A DNA stretch of 36,696 bases from an uncultured Anaerolineaceae bacterium (GTDB lineage Bacteria > Chloroflexota > Anaerolineae > JAAYZQ01). The stretch spans positions 1-36,696 of the forward strand of contig CAZQKE010000132.1 of the NCBI GenBank assembly GCA_964593865.1, read 5' to 3'. A model generated the notes under the pieces. That model had not been told where the DNA came from. It worked only from the letters and a program-made list of their open reading frames with translations, and did no database searches. Each line of letters starts with the position of its first letter. Position 1 is the stretch's first letter. Of the stretch, positions 5,605 to 13,896 are shown in pieces. A program made the translations under genes and the position numbers.

Positions 5605-8061
5605 TCAGTCAACCGGCTCCGACCTCCGACGCCGGATCAATGCGGCCAGGGCCAACGGCAGGGCCGCCGCGCCGCCGCAGAGTCCACCCTTTGACGGCTC
5701 TGCCGGGGGCGTGGGAGCCGCCGGTTCGCCGGTCGGCGCGGCCGGCCGGGTTGGGGCAGGGGCTTCCGGTTGGCCCGGCGGTTCCCCCAGGCGAAAGGCC
5801 CCGCCCCCCTCGGAGGCCATGTAGAGCACCCGGCCATCGGTGGAAAGGGCCAGGTCGCGCACGTTGCGGGTGAGCAGGCCGTCGTTCAGCTCCTGCCAGG
5901 TCGCCCCTCCGTCGGTGGAAAAGTAGATGCCGCTCTCCGCAGCCCCGGCATAGAGCACCTGGGGGTCGGTGGGGTCCACGACGATGGCCTTGACCGAGAC
6001 CTCCGGCGGCATCCCCGACGAAGCAGGCCGCCAGGTCCGCCCGCCGTCGTCGCTGATGGCCGCGCCGCCCCGCACGAAACCGATGTAGAGCCGCTCCCGG
6101 TTCGTCGGGTCCACGGCCAGGGCCAGGGGGGCCGTGCGCGGCATATCCGGGTCGGGGGGCGGCGGCATTCCCTGGGTGGCGTCGTCGTTGACCATCTCCC
6201 ACGTTTCCCCGCCGTCGTCGGAGCGGTAGACGCGGGCGGGGGCCACCGTGGCATAGACGCGCCGACCGTCGGCGGCAAAGGCCAGGTTCAGCACCTGTTG
6301 CCCGTCCAGGCCGGAGGGCGTCCAGGTCTGGCCGCCGTCGCGGGAAAGGATGATGCCGCCGCCCGGTTCCTCGCAGCCTTCGCCTTTGGTCTGGCAAGCG
6401 CCGTTCCCCACACCGGCCAGGACCAGGCCCCGTTCGGTGGGGGAGAAGCGGAAGCGGGTGGCCATGCCCTGCAGTCCCTTGTCCATCAGCTCATGGCCCA
6501 CGTCGCGCCAGGTGTGGCCGCCGTCGGTGCTCAGCTTGGGCAGCGGTCCCGCGTCGCCCACGCTGGCCAGGATATGTTGTGCGTCCCACGGGTCCACGGC
6601 GATGGCCAACCCTTCCAGGGCGCGGGCCGGGCCGTAGCTCAACCCCTCCCAGGTTTGGCCGCCGTCGCTGCTGGCAAAGAGGCCGCTGCGGGCGGTGGCA
6701 TAGACGCGGGCCGGATCGTCCCGCGCCACGGCGATCTGGAACATCAACGCGCCGGAATAGCCCCGGCTGGCCACCTGCCAGGTGCGGCCCCCATCCTCGC
6801 TGAGAAAGTTGCCGCCGCCGTAGGCGTTGACGAACACCCGATCGGCGTTGCGGGGATCGCATTGCAGGTCAATGGGGAACCCGGCCACCACCCCCGGCGG
6901 CCCCCACATCTCCTCCCCCACCTGGACAACCTGGCCTTCGCCGACGCCGGCCTGCAACCGCCAGGTTTGGCCCGCGTCGTCGCTGCGGTAGAAGCTATAC
7001 AAAGAGGCGGCGTAGGCCACATTCGGGTCCCCCTCGCAGATTTCAACCGCGCTGCCGTTGGGCAGATCAAGCACCCGCTGCCAGGTATCGCCGCCGTCCT
7101 CGGTGCGGTAGACGGCGCCGAGGGGATGGCCCAGGACGTACATGTAGGGATCGTTGCCCGCGGCGGCCAGGAGAATGTTCGGGTTGGTGGGGTGCATGTA
7201 GAGGCTGCCGAAGTAGAGCTCATCGGGGCGGAAGCCGTTTTCCACCCCCAGCACCTCCCAGGTCTGGCCGCCGTCATGGCTGCGGAGGATGCCCACGCCG
7301 CCCGGATCGGGGGCCTCGGGATCGCCGTTGGCCGCCACCCGGTCAAAAATGCCGGTGGAGACGTAGAGCAGGTTGTGATCCTGGGGGTGAATCCAGATGT
7401 AGCGGGCCAGATTGTCGCCGTACCAGATGCGCTCCCAGTGTTGGCCGCCGTCGGTCGTCTTGTAGACGATGCCCTTGACCGTGTCCACCCCCTGAAGGCT
7501 GGGCAAGGGTGAGCCGTTCCACTCCCAGCTGGATACCTCCCCGGCCAGGTAGACCACGTCCGAGTTGCCCGGTTCGACGGTCAGGCCCCGGATGGTAGGG
7601 CCGCGTTCCCGGATGCCGTTGTCCATCCGCACCCAGGTCGCGCCGCCGTCGTCGCTGCGATAGACGCTGCGCGAATACTGGGTTCCGATCCACACCCGGT
7701 CGGGGTTGTTGGGGTCAATGGTTAGGCTAAAGACGGGGATGCCGTCGCCGGAAGGGCCGATGCGGGTGATGATGCCGGAGTTGCTGAGGAACCAGCTCTG
7801 CCCGCCGTCGGTGGATTTGAACACCCCGGCCCAGGCGTCGGTGACGAACATCACATCGGGGTTGTCGGGCCGCATACGGACATCATAGCCCAGCCCGCCC
7901 AGCGGCCCGCCCAGGTACACCCAGGGGGAGGATTGATAGGCCGGAGGTGGTTCGCCTGCTTCCCGCAGGCCGCTACCTTGCGCTCCTACGCCCCCCAAGG
8001 ACAACAAGACCGATGCCAACGTGACGATGCCGACCAGTGAGATGATTCTTTTACCGTCCAT
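5605..8061 (-). CDS. Secreted BNR/Asp-box repeat protein with about 13 SxDxGxTW motifs, consistent with two beta-propellers of the GH74/sortilin-like type. It ends in a GlyGly-CTERM-like tail.
   Basis: The ATG at 8059-8061 (rc) has an AGGAGC RBS. The signal peptide is MDGKRIISLVGIVTLASVLLSL. Repeated Asp-boxes include STDGGQSW, SDDGGATW, TTDGGQHW and SHDGGQTW. The C-terminus is KGGLCGGAAALPLALAALIRRRRSEPVD. The track ORF runs 85 codons further upstream into the repeat array and is not believed. Confidence 0.8.
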   Translation of the reverse strand: MDGKRIISLVGIVTLASVLLSLGGVGAQGSGLREAGEPPPAYQSSPWVYLGGPLGGLGYDVRMRPDNPDVMFVTDAWAGVFKSTDGGQSWFLSNSGIITRIGPSGDGIPVFSLTIDPNNPDRVWIGTQYSRSVYRSDDGGATWVRMDNGIRERGPTIRGLTVEPGNSDVVYLAGEVSSWEWNGSPLPSLQGVDTVKGIVYKTTDGGQHWERIWYGDNLARYIWIHPQDHNLLYVSTGIFDRVAANGDPEAPDPGGVGILRSHDGGQTWEVLGVENGFRPDELYFGSLYMHPTNPNILLAAAGNDPYMYVLGHPLGAVYRTEDGGDTWQRVLDLPNGSAVEICEGDPNVAYAASLYSFYRSDDAGQTWRLQAGVGEGQVVQVGEEMWGPPGVVAGFPIDLQCDPRNADRVFVNAYGGGNFLSEDGGRTWQVASRGYSGALMFQIAVARDDPARVYATARSGLFASSDGGQTWEGLSYGPARALEGLAIAVDPWDAQHILASVGDAGPLPKLSTDGGHTWRDVGHELMDKGLQGMATRFRFSPTERGLVLAGVGNGACQTKGEGCEEPGGGIILSRDGGQTWTPSGLDGQQVLNLAFAADGRRVYATVAPARVYRSDDGGETWEMVNDDATQGMPPPPDPDMPRTAPLALAVDPTNRERLYIGFVRGGAAISDDGGRTWRPASSGMPPEVSVKAIVVDPTDPQVLYAGAAESGIYFSTDGGATWQELNDGLLTRNVRDLALSTDGRVLYMASEGGGAFRLGEPPGQPEAPAPTRPAAPTGEPAAPTPPAEPSKGGLCGGAAALPLALAALIRRRRSEPVD

Positions 8062-8100
8062 ATTTGCTCCTAACATTCCCGGTCCCACCGCCGGGCCGTG

Positions 8101-8749
8101 CAGCGGGATTTTCATCCCCGCTGGTGAACCGAGAATACGCGGTTGAGACCGCCCCTGGCGGGCCGTTGGCCGACCGCCCGCCTGTGCGTGCGCGCCTGCC
8201 ATGCAGGCGGAAGCGTCCGCGTAGGCGGACGCCCGGCCGCAGGCCCGAAAGGAGCGACTTGAGTCGCCACTCGCACCCTCCCGCAGGCTGGGCGGCGGAT
8301 GCCCACAGCAGCGCATGGCAACGGCAAGCGGGACCTGTCCGGGCCACGGCTTACAAGCCTGCGGGAGGGTTCCCGCGCGGGATTTTCATCCCCGCTGGTG
8401 AGCCGAGAATACGCGGTTGAAACCGCCCCTGGCGGGCCGTTGGCCGACCGCCCGCCTGTGCGTGCGCGCCTGCCATGCAGGCGGAAGCGTCCGCGTAGGC
8501 GGACGCCCGGCCGCAGGCCCAAAAGGAGCGACTTGAGTCGCCACTCGCACCCTCCCGCAGGCCGGGCGGCGGATGCCCACAGCGGCGCATGGCAACGGCA
8601 AGCGGGACCTGTCCGGGCCACGGCTCACAAGCCTGCGGGAGGGTTCCCGCGCGGGATTTTCATCCCCGGTGGTGGGCCGAGAATACGCGGTTGAAACCGC
8701 CCCTGGTGGGCCGTTGGCCGACCGCCCGCACAGGCGGGCGGTCGGCCCA
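8101..8749. repeat. Tandem array of a ~277-nt structured element, about 2.3 copies: a 3' fragment, then two full units, then a diverged partial.
   Basis: The unit runs from GGTTGAAACCGCCCCTGGCGGG to GGGATTTTCATCCCCGCTGGTGAGCCGAGAATACGC. The two full units start at 8139 and 8416 and differ at about 6 positions, roughly 98 % identity. Internal hairpins include GCGTCCGC-GTAG-GCGGACGC, GCGACT-TGA-GTCGC, GCCTGC-CATG-CAGGC, and the 13-bp inverted repeat CCCTCCCGCAGGC-N55-GCCTGCGGGAGGG. Confidence 0.85.
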
Positions 8750-8775
8750 GGAGTCACGGCTTTCGCTGTCGCGCC

Positions 8776-8830
8776 GGTAGCGCAAGTTTCCAACTTGCGA
8801 GACCGCAAGCCGGAGGCTTGCGCAACGGCG
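8776..8830 (-). terminator. Tandem hairpins downstream of the small secreted-protein gene; a possible terminator, although no U-tract follows.
   Basis: The stems are CGCAAGTT-TCC-AACTTGCG (8 bp) and GCAAGCC-GGA-GGCTTGC (7 bp). They lie immediately 3' of the stop at 8874 in minus-strand sense. No uridine run follows either stem. Confidence 0.25.
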
Positions 8831-8873
8831 CAGGAAAACGCCCGCCCCCGGTCCAGGAGTCGCCGCCTCCGGG

Positions 8874-9158
8874 CTAGTGACTGCGCAGCACCAGGGGCAA
8901 ATAGACCCGCCACATCGGAGTCACGCCGCTGCCGCACCAAAAACCGCCGCACAGGCTGTGCCCGCTGCTAACGGTCTCGCCGGTCAACGGTTGACCGATG
9001 CTCCCCATCAGCAGGTGGTTCGCGTCGGCCGCCGAGCCACCGCCCCCGGCCACCACATGCCAGGAAAGGTCATAGTTGGCCGAAACTTGGGCCAGCACCG
9101 GCGCGACCACCGCCAGGAGCAGGCAGAGGGACAGGGCCGGAATGAGTTTGTCCTTCAT
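8874..9158 (-). CDS. Small secreted Gly/Cys-rich protein (94 aa) with the conserved C-terminal motif YLPLVLRSH; the B1 member of the duplicated cassette.
   Basis: The ATG at 9158 is preceded by GAGGAGGG. It lies 12 nt downstream of the upstream gene's stop. The signal peptide is MKDKLIPALSLCLLLAVVAPVLA. A CGGFWCG motif is present. The protein is paralogous to the one at 12431..12709. Confidence 0.6.
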   Translation of the reverse strand: MKDKLIPALSLCLLLAVVAPVLAQVSANYDLSWHVVAGGGGSAADANHLLMGSIGQPLTGETVSSGHSLCGGFWCGSGVTPMWRVYLPLVLRSH

Positions 9159-9170
9159 GTCATCCCTCCT

Positions 9171-11177
9171 CTACCGCTTGCTGACGGTGTTATCGTTGTT
9201 GTTGCTGATCCACATGTTGGCCCCGTCGAAGGCGATGTACAAGGGCCGGTCACCGACGGATACGGTGGCGACCGGTCCAAAGTCTGCGACGCGGACGATG
9301 CTCACCGTATCGTCATACTCGTTCACCACCCACATATTGGCTCCGTCAAAAGCCAGGGCCGTCGGCCCACTGCCGATGACGGGCGGCTGGAGCGTTTTGA
9401 CCAGTGCGCCGTCGCTGGCCCGGAAGACGCTGACCGTACCGCCGTCCAGGTTGGCAACCCACATGTTGGCGCCGTCAAAGGCGATGGCCGTCGGCCCGAC
9501 ACCGGCGGTGAGCGTCATCACGTGTGTCCCGTCGTTGGCGCGGATGACGCTGACCGTGCCGACCGAGTAATTCGTGATCCACATGTTGACCCCGTCAAAG
9601 GCGATGCCGCGCGGCCCTACGTCAAGGGTGGGCGTCATCACATGTGTCCCGTCGCTGGCGCGGATGACGCTTACATTTTTGCTGCCGTTGTTTACCACCC
9701 ACATATTGGCTCCGTCGAAGGCGAGGCGGAAGGGGATCGTGCCGACGGTGGGTGTCATCACATGGCTGCAATCGCTGGCCCGCAACACGCTGACAGTATT
9801 GTTGTCCCTGTTTGTGACCCACATGTTAACTCCGTCGAAGGCGATGGTATCGGGGTTGAGGCCGACGGTGCAGGTCATCACCCGCTCGCCGGTGCTGGCC
9901 CGCAGCACGGTGACGGAATCGGGGCCATAGTTTGCCACCCATATATTGGCTCCATCAAAGGCAATGCCGCTTGGCTGCTGGCCGGTGGGGAAACTCAGGT
10001 CGGTGGCGATGGCCGGATACCACTTGAGCAGGGCGATCTGTTGCAGATTCGGCCCCTGGATGAGGGAGGGACCGAGCGTTGCCAGGGCAAACCCATCCCC
10101 ACTGGAAGCTCCCAAGCCGACGCCGTGGGTGCTGGTGAAGTAGCCTCCCACACCGTTCCCCCGGTTTTCACCGATGACGGCGGCGTAGCTCTCCCGAGAG
10201 TTGGCGTGGACCCCTGCGCCGTGGGTGCTGGTAAAGTAACCGGCCGTGCTGCTGATGCTCATGCCGTGGACGCCGACGTCGTTGGTGCTGAAACCCAGGA
10301 CGCCAAAGCCATCTGCGCTTTCGCCCAGCACTCCAACGACCGGGCCGTGCCCCTTGACACCGATCTCGCTACCGCTGCTCCCGATGATGCCGATGTCTTG
10401 GGTGCTTGTAAAGAAACCGGCCACACCTTTGCTCAAGCCGTAAACGCCGTAGCCTGTATCGCTGGCTCCTTGCAGGCCCGGTCCTGCTGCATAGTTCTCG
10501 CCCCAGATGGCCGCCGAGGTATCGGAACCGGTGCCGCCGTAGACCGCCGAGGAGGTGTTGCTGCCGAATTCACCGCCGAACCCGTCCTGGCTCGTCGCCA
10601 GGATGCCGGCTCCGCCCGTGCTCCAGGCGTGGACCGCTGCCCGGTCGCCGTTGGCGTACAGACCGACGGCACCGCTGCCTTTGTTGATGGCATACAGTAC
10701 GGCGGTGTTCTCGTTGCCGGCAAGCCCGCCGCTGATGACCGCTCCCGGCCGCAGCGAGAGAGCGTAGGGAACGGGGAACAGCGGCTGGCGGGGTGTCATC
10801 TCTGCCTCTCCCTGGAGCTGCACCCCCAGCCACAACGCCCGCCCGTCAACCAGGCCGGGGTCCACGCCGTCCAGATAGGCGGTGAAAAAGCCTTCCTCTA
10901 CGGATACGCTGATCGCCTGCGACCACACCGCCGCGCCGCCGGGCGAATCGTACAGACGGAAGGTGATCGTCCGGACGCCGTTGACCGGGTCGCCGTTGCT
11001 ATCCAACAAGCGGCCCTGGTAGGAAATGGTCCCGGAAACGACGTTGCCAACCGCCGCCGATGAGGCCGTCGGGCCGGTCACACCCGGCCCGGCCTGAACG
11101 CCGCCGACGATCAGCAACAGGACGGCCAATGCCAGGGCAAATACGATGCCGACAGAGATTGCTTGCTTTTTGTCCAT
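9171..11177 (-). CDS. N-terminally anchored surface protein (668 aa); the A1 member of the duplicated cassette. It carries a shared N-terminal module, a Gly-rich repeat region and a C-terminal beta-propeller of about 8 blades of the YVTN type.
   Basis: The ATG at 11177 is preceded by AAGGAGG. The track ORF extends 72 codons into the repeat element and is not believed. The N-terminal transmembrane anchor is ISVGIVFALALAVLLLIVGGV. The shared module runs from YQGRLLDSNGDPVNG to PRQPL. Repeats of GVxGxS and GYFTS types follow. There are 8 repeats of about 42 aa of the form AFDGANMWVxN..TVSVxRASDG.HVMT. Confidence 0.8.
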   Translation of the reverse strand: MDKKQAISVGIVFALALAVLLLIVGGVQAGPGVTGPTASSAAVGNVVSGTISYQGRLLDSNGDPVNGVRTITFRLYDSPGGAAVWSQAISVSVEEGFFTAYLDGVDPGLVDGRALWLGVQLQGEAEMTPRQPLFPVPYALSLRPGAVISGGLAGNENTAVLYAINKGSGAVGLYANGDRAAVHAWSTGGAGILATSQDGFGGEFGSNTSSAVYGGTGSDTSAAIWGENYAAGPGLQGASDTGYGVYGLSKGVAGFFTSTQDIGIIGSSGSEIGVKGHGPVVGVLGESADGFGVLGFSTNDVGVHGMSISSTAGYFTSTHGAGVHANSRESYAAVIGENRGNGVGGYFTSTHGVGLGASSGDGFALATLGPSLIQGPNLQQIALLKWYPAIATDLSFPTGQQPSGIAFDGANIWVANYGPDSVTVLRASTGERVMTCTVGLNPDTIAFDGVNMWVTNRDNNTVSVLRASDCSHVMTPTVGTIPFRLAFDGANMWVVNNGSKNVSVIRASDGTHVMTPTLDVGPRGIAFDGVNMWITNYSVGTVSVIRANDGTHVMTLTAGVGPTAIAFDGANMWVANLDGGTVSVFRASDGALVKTLQPPVIGSGPTALAFDGANMWVVNEYDDTVSIVRVADFGPVATVSVGDRPLYIAFDGANMWISNNNDNTVSKR
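9190..9990. repeat. Intragenic tandem DNA repeats with a period of about 126 nt, encoding the YVTN blades.
   Basis: Eight recurring copies of CACATGTTGGC(N)CCGTC(A/G)AAGGCGATG are seen, roughly 126 nt apart. They correspond to the AFDGANMWV blade motif read on the minus strand. Confidence 0.7.
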
Positions 11178-11217
11178 TTTCTTCCTCCTTTTCACACTTT
11201 TTGCTTCTTTGAAAACA

Positions 11218-11385
11218 GCGGTTGAAACCGCCCCTGGCGGGCCGTTGGCCGACCGCCCGCCTACGCGGGCGGAAGCGGGAGCGTCCGCGTAGGCGGACGC
11301 CCGGCCACAGGCCCAAAAGGAGCGACTTGAGTCGCCACCGTCTCCGGCGCGAGCAGCCGGGATTTTCATCCCCGGTGGTGAGCCG
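11218..11385. repeat. Shortened modular copy of the ~277-nt structured element.
   Basis: It shares GCGGTTGAAACCGCCCCTGGCGGGCCGTTGGCCGACCGCCCGC, GCGTCCGCGTAGGCGGACGCCCGGCC, CAGGCCCAAAAGGAGCGACTTGAGTCGCCAC and the terminal GGGATTTTCATCCCCGGTGGTGAGCCG with the array at 8101-8749. It lacks the ~125-nt module containing the 13-bp inverted repeat. It fills the spacer between the hydrolase stop at 11390 and the surface-protein start at 11177. Confidence 0.8.
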
Positions 11386-11389
11386 GGGG

Positions 11390-12271
11390 TCACCTGGACT
11401 TTAGAAATTCGATGAGGAGCGGGTTGACCCGGTCCGCCCGCTCATAGTGGGGCACATGCCCCGCTTCCTCGATGGCCCGGAACTCAAGGTTGGGGATCAG
11501 CCGCCGGACCTCCCGGCTGAGGGCAAAGGGGATCACCCTATCCCGGCGGCCCCAGATCAGCAGCACGGGGCGATCCTGCCGCCCCACGCTTTCATACTCG
11601 GCCCGGACGCCGGTCAGCAGCCCGCTCCGCAGGGTGGAAAGCAAAGCCTTTTTGAACCCGCGATAGGGCATCTGGCGACGGTATTTTTCCACATAAGCCG
11701 GATCGGGGAACCGGTCGGTGTCGTAAAAGTCGTCCCGCAGCCCGGCAACGAGCACCCGGTCCCCCAGCAAGCCCATCATCCATTCGCCCAGCCGGGGGAG
11801 CGTGACCAGCCGGGCCATCAGGGAAGGCTTTTGCGGCAGGCCCGCCGGATCGATCAGGACCAGCCGCCGCACCCGGTCGGGGTGGCGGCTGGTAAAGACG
11901 ACGGCAATGGCCCCGCCCATGGATAGGCCGATCAGGTCCACAGGGCCGGATATGTCCAGAGCGGAGAGGAGTCCCAGCAACTGCCGGTCGAACAGGTCGG
12001 CGTCATAGGTCGTGTCGGGCCGGTCGGAATAACCCCGGCCGTAGAGGTCGTAGCGCAGCACACGGAACCCGGCCCGGACCAAGGCGGCAAAGGTGGGGTC
12101 CCAGATGTGGTAGGGGACCGAAAAGCCGTGTACCAGGACCACGACCTGTCCCTCCGGCGGCCCGGCCATCTCATAGTGGACCATCCCTTCCGGCAGGGCG
12201 ACGAATTGACCGGGTGCGGCAGCGCGGGCTGCCGCATCCAGGTCACGCGATTCTCCAAACTTTGCAGGCAT
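11390..12271 (-). CDS. Alpha/beta-fold hydrolase.
   Basis: The ATG at 12271 is preceded by GGGAGGGG. A GxSxG nucleophile elbow is present (GLSMGG). The VLVHGF oxyanion region is present, as are a C-terminal Asp and His (AGHVPHY). The substrate is unknown. Confidence 0.8.
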   Translation of the reverse strand: MPAKFGESRDLDAAARAAAPGQFVALPEGMVHYEMAGPPEGQVVVLVHGFSVPYHIWDPTFAALVRAGFRVLRYDLYGRGYSDRPDTTYDADLFDRQLLGLLSALDISGPVDLIGLSMGGAIAVVFTSRHPDRVRRLVLIDPAGLPQKPSLMARLVTLPRLGEWMMGLLGDRVLVAGLRDDFYDTDRFPDPAYVEKYRRQMPYRGFKKALLSTLRSGLLTGVRAEYESVGRQDRPVLLIWGRRDRVIPFALSREVRRLIPNLEFRAIEEAGHVPHYERADRVNPLLIEFLKSR

Positions 12272-12430
12272 TTCCCCTCCCGATCCGGCTTCAGGGCAAA
12301 GGCATTTATCGTCTCCCCGGCCCACCGCAGAGGTGCGGAGAGGACCTACGTAGAACTCGCCGTCTCCCGGCAATTCCGGGCGAACCCTGCAAGTGCGCTT
12401 GCCCGAATCCGACCCCTTGCCGGTCTTGGT

Positions 12431-12709
12431 CTAATGGTTGCGCAGTATGCAAGGTAGGTAGAGACAGCAGCAGCCGCTGCCCCGCAATGCCGGGGCGGCA
12501 GGGCTGAGCAGATACCCCGGTCCGCCGACGACGCCGCCCACACGCCAGGCCAGGACGGTCAGGTGATAGGTCCCGCCGGAGGTAACTCCCGCCTCGACGG
12601 TGTACGGCGCGGCGGTGGGCCGCCCGCCGGACCGGGCGGAGACGACTCCGGTCAGCAACAGCGTGCAGACCAGGATGGCCGGGATGATCCAGAGCGCATA
12701 TCTTTTCAT
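12431..12709 (-). CDS. Small secreted Gly/Cys-rich protein (92 aa) ending in YLPCILRNH; the B2 member of the duplicated cassette.
   Basis: Its ATG overlaps the upstream gene's stop as ATGA at 12706-12709. The signal peptide is MKRYALWIIPAILVCTLLLTGVVSA. A GSGCCC cluster is present. The C-terminus is paralogous to that of the 8874..9158 product. Confidence 0.6.
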   Translation of the reverse strand: MKRYALWIIPAILVCTLLLTGVVSARSGGRPTAAPYTVEAGVTSGGTYHLTVLAWRVGGVVGGPGYLLSPAAPALRGSGCCCLYLPCILRNH

Positions 12710-13896
12710 CGTTCACCCTCCGGTTTTTCCAGCCGCCGGTCCTCGTAGCCCAGCCGCTTGGCAACGATGCGGTAATCAAAAGAACAGGACGAGGGTTGCC
12801 CGTCGAGGGTCACACCGCGTACGGTAAAGCCGGTGGTTCCCTTGTCGGTGACGAACAGCAGCACCGGCTCCCGGCACAGCGGGGTTACAAAAACGTGATA
12901 CTCGGTTTTCAAGTTGACCGTCTGGGCAAAGATGGGATCAAAGACAACGGTGGCCTCACCGTCCGACAGGGATGCGCTGCCCAGGTCCTCAAACCAAACT
13001 TCGGGACTCTCAACGGCATACAGCAGGCGGCGGCCATGGTCGGCCGTTTTGACCAGGGCCGATTTGCTGCCGGTGCAGTTCAGGTTCCCGCTTTCGTCAA
13101 TGGTGCATACGTCGGTGCCCCCCGAATTTTTGACCCGCAAGGTATGGTCCTCGCCGCCGTCGTTGTCCAGCTTCAGGACAATGTCGGCATTGCTGGAAAG
13201 CCACAGTTGGCTGTCTCCGCTGTCGGCGGCGTTGATCCGGCCGATATCCCCGCCCAGGCCCAGGTCAAGGTGGTCGTTGCTGCTGGAAAAATAGCCGCCG
13301 TAGTCGGTTTCGCTTACGCCGTACACGCCCGGACCGCTCTTGCTGCTGGCCAGGATGCCTTTGGTATCCGCCAAGCCGGAGATGTTAAAGAGGGCCAGGC
13401 CCCAAAAATCTTCCCCCGTCCACGATTCGCCAAAGTGGTCGTGGGGACAGGAAGAGCCGGCGGTGGGAGCGGACGGGGCGGACGGGGCCAGTCGCTGGCG
13501 CGGGTTCAGTAGGGTGAACTCGGTTTCCCCCGGCCCGCGCACCCCCACCTCCAACCAGAGGTTGTCTTCCTCCAGCACCGCCGGGGGGATTCCCTCCTTG
13601 CTTCCAAGAGAAGTGAAGAATGTGCCGTTCTTGACCGCCACCCCCGCCTGTGTCTCCGTCCACAACGGTTGCCCGCCGGTTGCGACATTGTACAGGGCAA
13701 AGGTGAAATCATAGCGCCCGTCGGCCACCGCTTGCCCCGCCTCTTTGCTCAGGCGACCGGGGTAGGGGATGGTCACGCCGGGGGAAGCGGTCTCTTGCTC
13801 CGGCGACAGGGCACGCACCGTGTCGGCCAAACGAGGGATAAGCCCCACGGCCAACACCAAAACACCGACGATCAGCAAAGTTTTCTTCGCAGACAT
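12706..13896 (-). CDS. N-terminally anchored surface protein (396 aa); the A2 member of the duplicated cassette. It has the shared N-terminal module and an unrelated C-terminal beta-rich domain.
   Basis: The ATG at 13896 is preceded by AAAGGAGG. The transmembrane anchor is KKTLLIVGVLVLAVGLI. The shared module (YPGRLSKEAGQAVADGRYDFTFALYN...PLWTETQ...FFTSLG...LWLEV...PRQRL) aligns with residues 40-150 of the 9171..11177 product. The C-terminal domain contains GVYGVSETDYGGYF. Confidence 0.75.
   Translation of the reverse strand: MSAKKTLLIVGVLVLAVGLIPRLADTVRALSPEQETASPGVTIPYPGRLSKEAGQAVADGRYDFTFALYNVATGGQPLWTETQAGVAVKNGTFFTSLGSKEGIPPAVLEEDNLWLEVGVRGPGETEFTLLNPRQRLAPSAPSAPTAGSSCPHDHFGESWTGEDFWGLALFNISGLADTKGILASSKSGPGVYGVSETDYGGYFSSSNDHLDLGLGGDIGRINAADSGDSQLWLSSNADIVLKLDNDGGEDHTLRVKNSGGTDVCTIDESGNLNCTGSKSALVKTADHGRRLLYAVESPEVWFEDLGSASLSDGEATVVFDPIFAQTVNLKTEYHVFVTPLCREPVLLFVTDKGTTGFTVRGVTLDGQPSSCSFDYRIVAKRLGYEDRRLEKPEGER

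Follow-up and report, generated by a model that had tools for sequence, protein, structure and literature searches.

Two pairs of genes for predicted MAT-like fibre proteins and small secreted partners in an uncultured Chloroflexota genome

The DNA analysed here is a contig of 36,696 nt from an uncultured Anaerolineaceae bacterium of the Chloroflexota (CAZQKE010000132.1 in assembly GCA_964593865.1; the whole stretch is referred to as the window), and it carries two gene pairs, each consisting of a large gene (A) and a small gene (B) that follows it. The first pair comprises A2 (12706..13896, 396 aa) and B2 (12431..12709, 92 aa), and the second comprises A1 (9171..11177, 668 aa) and B1 (8874..9158, 94 aa). 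All four genes, and all of the features within them that are described below, are on the minus strand of the window. They were put forward in an earlier reading of the sequence alone (hereafter the original prediction), and the open reading frame (ORF) list has them at these positions. The A proteins appear to be secreted and related to the 'mosaic adhesive trimer' (MAT) fibres of Bdellovibrio, the B proteins are small secreted proteins that end in a putative sorting motif, the YLP-box, or a variant of it, and the order A-then-B recurs in nearly all of the assessable Chloroflexota loci. What the B protein contributes to its fibre is the question to which most of the evidence below is directed.

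The two genes of each pair are very closely spaced, as the original prediction had it (12 nt or less). The A1 stop codon TAG (9173-9171) is followed directly by a Shine-Dalgarno sequence, AGGAGG (9165..9170), and after a 12-nt spacer by the ATG of B1 at 9158; the A2 stop and the B2 start overlap as ATGA, with GGAGGG upstream of B2. Because the Shine-Dalgarno sequence of B1 stands right after the A1 stop, and because A2 and B2 share ATGA, each small gene is to all appearances translationally coupled to the large gene that precedes it. The longer ORF 9171..11393 of the ORF list is an artefact, its first 72 codons falling in a repeat element that is described at the end; with the upstream extension in that element, the ATG at 11177 is the plausible start.

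The large proteins and their kinship with MAT fibres

The N-terminal ~140-220 residues of A1 and A2 align with 29% identity (E=1e-10), and the shared module that was first noted there is borne out. It occupies residues ~50-140 of A1 (10758..11030; YQGRL...TPRQ) and residues ~41-140 of A2 (13477..13776; of the YPGRL...NPRQ type), and its consensus is I-x-YQGRL-x-D-x-x-G-x-P...TF-x-LY...GG...LW...GLF...LWLGV...EMTPRQ...VPYAL. An alignment of 49 rows (A1, A2 and 47 relatives) was scanned row by row against NCBIfam, and 36 of the rows match NF053851 Bdello_MAT_N, the best with E=7.7e-12. The match of A2 is weak (16.7 bits, E=0.0047) and the row of A1 itself has none against this model, such that the link for A1 runs via its relatives. 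The matches cover about half of the model and lie under its 60-bit cut-off, and because of this they indicate that the N-module is a distant homologue of Bdello_MAT_N and not a member of the Bdellovibrio subfamily. AlphaFold2 (AF2) models the module as a confident beta-sandwich, with a pLDDT (predicted local distance difference test) above 95 over residues 50-130, for which no specific relative was found in the PDB. Sequence searches of the PDB with the N-module profile and with A2 gave nothing significant, and when A1, A2, B1 and B2 were compared with Pfam the sole matches were those of the A1 propeller.

MAT chimeric fibres were first described in 2024, in one predator, Bdellovibrio bacteriovorus (Caulton et al. 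2024, PMC10769870). They are like the A proteins in several respects. Directly behind the signal peptide they have a beta-rich, conserved N-domain (~100-130 aa) without a PDB homologue (PMC10769870); their C-termini are exchangeable, as in the A family, some members ending in a Peptidase_S74 chaperone/protease; and their genes are chromosomal rather than those of a phage. The A proteins appear to have the same combination of signal peptide and beta-rich N-domain, as seen in the AxA-like sites described below, the AF2 beta-sandwich and the conservation across the 49 sequences. They differ in coming from Chloroflexota rather than from a predator and, in A1, in ending in a YVTN propeller. MAT fibres are moreover intertwined trimeric beta-helix/prism structures on the cell surface, whereas A is known here from its sequence and a monomer model of the N-module. 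A term search of the passages available from the MAT paper found no small downstream partner such as B (PMC10769870), a search that covers those passages and not the Bdellovibrio genes themselves.

The large proteins were originally described as N-anchored, which is probably wrong. The hydrophobic N-termini of the A homologues mostly end in AxA-like sites (AWA/GP, ALA/QG and VQA/GP are examples), and since this is the pattern of cleavage sites they are more likely to be cleaved signal peptides than transmembrane anchors. A lipobox is present in one A homologue (locus L020, 3700-4956), in which a lipoprotein signal (LFTGC) stands directly before the N-module; in that lineage the fibre base may be anchored by a lipid.

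Beyond the module the two large proteins were said to diverge completely, but both have short GVYGxS..GYFxS repeats just after it. In A1 there follows a Gly-rich repeat region (10023..10757) with a G[VIL]xGxS periodicity, which is presumed to form a fibre shaft by analogy with the beta-helix/prism shafts of MAT fibres (PMC10769870). The C-terminus of A1 is a YVTN-type beta-propeller (9174..9995; TIGR02276, 39.3 bits against a cut-off of 27.85) that ends in TVSKR. It has seven FDGxNMW blade motifs, 40 aa apart, where eight blades had been counted before, and the repeats are visible in the DNA as a 120-nt periodicity and as the repeat families D1, D2 and D5. The C-terminal domain of A2 (residues 266-393; 12718..13101) matches phrog_6616, 'tail protein', with E=7.2e-18. 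Orthologues of A2 are present in locus L004 (48% identity over the full length) and in locus L018 (44%), and an exact copy lies on an independent contig with the same small gene after it.

Among the homologues of the N-module the tips include the YVTN propeller, collagen, Peptidase_S74 (43.8 bits), phage tail domains, a recurrent '...GKALE...VLVTLQ' tail and others. A1 and A2 themselves are without S74. What emerges for A is a secreted protein of tail-fibre-like type, constant in its N-terminal domain and mosaic in the rest. We note that L004 has a third A-type gene (6335-7285) after its A1-like/B1-like pair, with no B gene following; the C-terminus of its product has a weak match to the T4 gp19 tail tube (25.7 bits, below the cut-off of 28.2).

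The small secreted proteins

There are ~100 close homologues of B1 in Chloroflexota, 90-130 aa long, with a common layout of signal peptide, Gly-rich core of ~55 aa and C-terminal YLP-box. In B1 the signal peptide ends in LAQ, the core spans residues 25-77 (8928..9086) and the YLP-box, YLPLVLR, lies at 8883..8903. The core of the family reads VSANYDLSWHVIAGGGG..S.GHTL.GT.GQP..G...S.GH.LCSGFWCG, in B1 YDLSWHVxAGGGG...GQP...CxGFWC and then YLPLVLRSH, and the family ends in ..YRVYLPLVLRN, either at the C-terminus or no more than 4 residues from it. The two cysteines of C-x-G-F-W-C are both present or both absent in almost all of the sequences, as expected for a disulfide in an exported protein. 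The signal peptides of the family end in a near-invariant Ala-Gln, (P)VLAQ/VS, an unusually conserved cleavage region; the conserved AQ may reflect an N-terminal pyroglutamate or a specific processing step.

The ratio of nonsynonymous to synonymous substitution rates (dN/dS) in the mature region of the B1 family is mostly 0.16-0.39 (range 0.07-0.63), and that of the B2 family is 0.34-0.58, such that both small ORFs are under purifying selection. Both products also have the secreted type of organisation that was originally predicted, with a hydrophobic, signal-peptide-like N-terminus, a body rich in Gly and Cys and a C-terminal YLP(L/C)(V/I)LR(S/N)H. By these measures B is a real, secreted and constrained small protein. 

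The B1 core is far more widespread than the pair. When 1.84 billion cluster representatives were searched with a profile of mature B1, 8803 clusters (at 50% identity) matched with E<=1e-3 and 1309 with E<=1e-10, most of them small proteins with a B1-like layout. The core (profile positions 1-56) has other settings too. Large multidomain surface proteins carry one copy, or tandem copies, immediately behind their signal peptide; elsewhere the core precedes dockerin repeats, forms the C-terminal end of a larger protein, or is followed first by a YLP-box and then by a LamG-like or propeller domain. The core has no match in Pfam, PHROG or PDB sequence searches, and these 8803 clusters without a Pfam model draw attention to a very large family of small proteins that has gone unannotated.

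The C-terminus of B1 passes the cut-offs of both NCBIfam models of the YLP-box, NF050076 sort_motif_YLP (16.1 bits, cut-off 15) and NF053834 ultrashort_CTERM (13.8 bits, cut-off 10), and 23 of 30 family members match NF050076. The idea of a sorting-and-maturation pair has some basis here, in a C-terminus that two models name a 'YLP-box putative sorting motif'; sorting itself is the label of those models. The YLP-box also terminates large unrelated surface proteins in the related loci that were fetched. In several other instances (L008, 2584-3402; L005, 2029-4074; proteins P0165, P0218 and P0188) it is internal, with a B core or beta-helix domain before it and a LamG-like (3-keto-disaccharide hydrolase) or propeller domain after it. 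An internal position before LamG-like domains is unusual for a terminal sorting signal; the YLP-box is apparently not strictly C-terminal, and could serve as a linker strand or as a site of processing. The C-terminal sorting domain of the type IX secretion system (T9SS), Por_Secre_tail, is analogous in function, being a short element at the C-terminus by which a secreted protein reaches the surface; it is unlike the YLP-box in its sequence element, machinery and phyla, and there is a single example in our data (assembly GCA_964630235.1, described below).

Behind its signal peptide B2 has a body rich in Gly, which leads to an invariant CCC and the terminal YLPCILRNH; its YLP-box variant, YLPCILR, is at 12440..12460. 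Its family has six database members and one more in L004, in which CCC directly precedes YLPC(I/M)L and the CCC, L, P and L are invariant; B2-type genes follow A2-like genes in L004 and L018 as well. B2 has no match to the NCBIfam YLP-box models at E<=1, despite its YLPCILRNH end. The relation of B2 to B1 is narrow: only the last 10 residues align in BLASTP, and in a profile-profile comparison of the mature B1 family with the B2 family the alignment is confined to 14 columns at the YLP-box (E=6e-6), the one stretch of B2 that is alignable with the B1 family. An hhalign probability of 98.9% was discarded as biased, since B2 and signal peptides were in the query alignment, and a clean run returned the YLP-box alone. 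B1 and B2 are thus alike in architecture and in the YLP-box, and paralogy of their cores is not demonstrable from their sequences. The original prediction of a duplicated paralogous cassette holds for the A1 and A2 modules, which are homologous, and overstates how B1 and B2 are related.

Conservation of the pairing and the possible role of the small partner

A scan of one genome per GTDB species gave 16 loci with a B1-family gene, which span Anaerolineae, Thermoflexia, Caldilineaceae and Chloroflexia. All of those with enough upstream DNA have an N-module gene directly upstream on the same strand, and in the remaining ones the ORF upstream is truncated or frameshifted and has an A-type tail. 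A metagenome scan gave 46 further loci, some of them redundant with the genome set; the N-module gene is directly upstream in 27 of the 29 that are assessable, and of the 16 or 17 that are short of upstream sequence most have a truncated ORF there whose end is TVSKR, VTLQ or a tail of the S74 type. Taken together, ~44 of the 46 Chloroflexota loci that can be assessed, some of them redundant, have B directly after A, irrespective of the C-terminal domain that A carries and with spacers of -4 to ~54 nt, and three divergent B representatives that were looked up are likewise preceded by an N-module or S74 protein. The A-then-B pairing is real and far beyond chance, and the gene arrangement points to A and B being co-translated and co-inherited. 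The conservation across genomes that the original prediction called for is therefore present, and neither of the outcomes that it named as depriving the pairing of meaning was encountered, the one being a match of the shared module to a common, well-characterised domain together with small genes missing beside homologues in other genomes, the other a lack of conservation of the small ORFs as coding sequence.

When the ORFs of the genome loci were compared all against all, no genes but A and B proved common to every locus. No conserved third gene (sortase-like, chaperone or usher) was found in the loci, and no natural A-B fusion among the proteins from the B search. L004 repeats the layout of the window, with an A2-like/B2-like pair, an A1-like/B1-like pair and then the third A gene, and L018 has an A2-like/B2-like pair. 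In L007 (3519-3950) an A-type N-module breaks off after its first ~55 residues and, by way of a frameshift or deletion, continues as a B-like ORF with the end YLPLVVRGL; it has the look of an A-B pair that has decayed, or else of an error in assembly.

The A proteins that have a B1-type partner show at least four or five unrelated C-terminal architectures, among which the N-module is 50-87% identical. Fibres with S74, which chaperone themselves, are still paired with B. The identity matrices of the N-module and of B are correlated (r=0.74, Mantel p ~4e-4), a correlation that is confounded by shared phylogeny. 

Outside Chloroflexota there is one instance of a neighbouring B core, in the metagenome-assembled genome (MAG) GCA_964630235.1 (L024, 3404-4798; the same in L025). 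Here a 190-aa protein with a signal peptide, a B-core-like domain (E=3e-7 to the B profile) and a Por_Secre_tail domain (28.8 bits, cut-off 27) is encoded directly upstream of a MAT_N+Collar protein that lacks a sorting domain. A PorV-like gene lies upstream of both. Relatives of B and of the N-module were absent from 2.9 million viral contigs in three scans.

The original prediction could not assign the pair to a described system. Its parts do touch described families, the MAT fibres and the YLP-box families, and the pair as such, a fibre with a YLP-box partner, was not found in the literature searched.

We suggest the following arrangement. A1 and A2 would be exported by the Sec pathway as surface fibres of the MAT kind, possibly trimeric, with a constant N-terminal beta-sandwich as the base, a shaft rich in Gly and, at the C-terminus, a binding domain that can be exchanged, which would be the YVTN propeller in A1 and the phage-tail-like domain in A2. 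B1 and B2 would be made from the A transcript by translational coupling. B would then bind the constant, cell-proximal N-module of its fibre rather than the variable tip, and the YLP-box, a tag common to many Chloroflexota surface proteins, would fix or sort the fibre base to the cell envelope. That B is such an anchoring adaptor, binding the fibre base and supplying an envelope-attachment tag, and not a folding chaperone, is a role that we hold tentatively and rate a little under even. The pair in GCA_964630235.1 would fit it, because there the core is kept beside a tagless MAT_N protein and the anchor is exchanged for a T9SS tag.

Several observations weigh against an anchoring adaptor. The Bdello_MAT_N scores of the homologues are 19-34 bits, all below the 60-bit cut-off with ~half of the model covered, and the N-module folds confidently by itself in AF2 and therefore has no obvious need of a partner strand. 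In MAGs outside Chloroflexota, of the Omnitrophota and others, there are N-module/MAT_N proteins without an adjacent B, so B is not generally required by the N-module. Conversely there are two exceptions in which B is found without A, one where it is preceded by a Peptidase_C10 (streptopain-like) gene (L071, 415-2359) and one where a B-YLP-LamG fusion has no A upstream (L038, 1406-1942). The AF2 monomer of B1, from a 30-sequence alignment, is poor (pLDDT 57). B2-type partners are seen with one A type only, and because of this their link to the N-module is inseparable from a link to the A2-type C-terminus. Internal YLP-boxes, which are followed by a LamG-like domain, are as compatible with a linker or a cleavage site as with a terminal anchor. 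Finally, we found no literature on the YLP-box, and its sorting role is a database label to which no described enzyme or acceptor belongs.

A second possibility is that B is an extracytoplasmic assembly factor that aids trimerisation or folding of the fibre and is absent from the final structure. Pairs of a phage fibre gene and a gene for a tail-fibre assembly chaperone are well known, lambda stf/tfa and Mu S/U being examples, and phage Tfa proteins act on specific fibre tips in the cytoplasm. The A-B pairs mirror these in having a small gene immediately after a tail-fibre-like gene and coupled to it, in the mosaic fibre C-termini and in the match of the A2 tip to a phage tail PHROG; the pairing is conserved, and the poor order of the B monomer in AF2 is what one might expect if B folds on a client. 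However, B1-type proteins go with unrelated tips, including those of fibres with an intramolecular S74 chaperone, and B combines a signal peptide and a probable disulfide with a tag of the sorting type, such as is found on large structural surface proteins, of which its core is itself a building block. B is also without a PHROG match, the genes are in a non-phage context and the viral contigs hold no copy. Since B is secreted, tip-independent, without a PHROG match and absent from the viral contigs scanned, it is probably not a phage-type tail-fibre chaperone. The parallel with phage fibre/chaperone pairs that was drawn at first is thus apt for the large proteins, which are tail-fibre-like by their matches to Bdello_MAT_N (36/49), S74, collagen and PHROG, and is unsupported for the small ones. 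We regard an extracytoplasmic assembly factor as unlikely.

A third possibility concerns pili. PamT of the CPR Pam pilus is predicted to be a tip pilin, with a truncated Ig-like fold that would accept a donor strand, and is encoded together with Pam pilins and chaperones. In Pam pilins the strand used is an internal linker, and a gene for a 'tail fibre-like protein' is reported beside the pam operon (bioRxiv 10.64898/2026.03.03.709456). The core of B has a weak but repeated similarity to the N-terminal third of PamT, both proteins being small and secreted: the model NF058579 CPR_pilus_PamT is weakly matched by 23 of 30 full-length B1-family members and by 9 of 28 from which the signal peptide was removed, with a best E of 3e-6 in the family. 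B might accordingly be a pilin-like subunit or cap that works by beta-strand donation, its YLP strand (VYLPLVLR) inserting into the core of another B or into an acceptor, with the fibre as a partner of the filament. The internal YLP-boxes that link a B core to a following domain, and a B monomer that is not confidently folded, would agree with this. Yet the scores are ~16-25 bits against a cut-off of 240 and fall in the first third of the model only; B1 itself scores 15.8 bits over model positions 9-77 of 241, well short of what membership takes, and at 94 aa is far smaller than the 241-position model. No Pam chaperones or pilins are near B, and the only genes conserved around the pairs are A and B, with none that is chaperone- or usher-like. 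As judged by these comparisons B is neither PamT nor a phage Tfa, and a pilin-like role seems to us distinctly improbable.

A small chance of similar size is left for B as an independent small secreted or surface protein, whether binding wall, sheath or S-layer or serving as a signalling or antimicrobial peptide, that merely shares an operon with A. The 8803 clusters, the examples without A (L038 and L071) and the many unrelated architectures in which the core occurs are in its favour, and a contact between A and B is something that we infer. Set against this are the near-obligate, coupled A-then-B order over several classes of Chloroflexota and many C-terminal variants, the degraded pair in L007 that is still adjacent, and the B-core protein that adjoins a MAT_N protein in another phylum; nor is any machinery for bacteriocins or for ribosomally synthesised and post-translationally modified peptides (RiPPs) conserved nearby. 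An identity of B as a RiPP or bacteriocin was considered separately and rejected, a radical SAM gene being near B in one lineage only and B having a Sec signal peptide; in L020 a radical SAM gene of the B12-binding type adjoins the B gene on the opposite strand. That the small ORFs are spurious and the pairing a by-product of GC-rich sequence, which does give many false ORFs in the window, is effectively refuted by hundreds of protein homologues, conserved motifs, covarying cysteines, dN/dS well below 1, a perfect Shine-Dalgarno sequence and the signal peptide.

If B is an anchoring adaptor, it bears on a point that the MAT paper raises. How the constant N-domain of MAT fibres is held on the cell is treated as an explicitly open question in PMC10769870; the N-domain 'would presumably tightly bind a surface element', and that element is there described as not yet identified (PMC10769870). 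B is a concrete and testable candidate for the anchoring partner of a MAT-type N-domain. A wider proposal, which we consider doubtful, is that the B core with its YLP-box is the missing surface element for MAT-type N-domains, that adhesive fibres in Chloroflexota are fixed to the envelope by a two-component system, and that the B core is a portable adaptor with lineage-specific anchors, which could be the YLP-box, a T9SS sorting domain or a C-terminal transmembrane helix. Were B to be the surface element of the N-domain, it would provide the first functional handle on the YLP-box and on an unannotated family of several thousand clusters. In any case MAT-related fibres are common in Chloroflexota and almost always have beside them a small secreted protein of their own, which is co-translated and bears a putative sorting tag, and the pair gives the YLP-box motif a first biological context. 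These findings bear on how filamentous Chloroflexota, which are largely uncultured and live in sediments, sludge and hot springs, attach to surfaces or other cells.

Genomic surroundings of the pairs

The closest relatives of A1, A2, B1 and B2 are in Chloroflexota MAGs, chiefly of the Anaerolineae. Around the pairs the chromosome carries housekeeping genes (purH, relA/spoT, ackA-pta and those for a histidine kinase and an acyl-CoA synthetase), no prophage was found in the gene context of the window, and a search of the whole window with Rfam gave zero matches. Between the two A/B pairs is an unrelated alpha/beta hydrolase gene (11390..12373). L018 also has a hydrolase after its B2-type gene, and the hydrolase was considered as a part of the unit; this was rejected, as the two hydrolases are unrelated (E=0.17).

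The A1-B1 pair is flanked by copies of a GC-rich element of 274 nt. There are ~2.3 tandem copies just downstream of B1 (8103-8740) and a partial copy just upstream of the A1 start (11182-11340). The element has strong predicted folding (z=-4.4) and no Rfam match, and its 43-nt core occurs four times where none is expected. It yields the spurious long ORFs 8112..8621 and 8386..8952, and it gives false N-terminal extensions to the ORFs 9171..11393 and 5605..8316. The second of these contains the gene for a BNR/Sortilin-type multi-propeller protein (5605-8061, minus strand), the C-terminal end of which is ...PSKGGLCGGAAALPLALAALIRRRRSEPVD. This tail, with a Pro/Thr-rich linker, a hydrophobic stretch and a basic end, resembles a C-terminal membrane anchor or sorting signal of a kind unlike the YLP-box.

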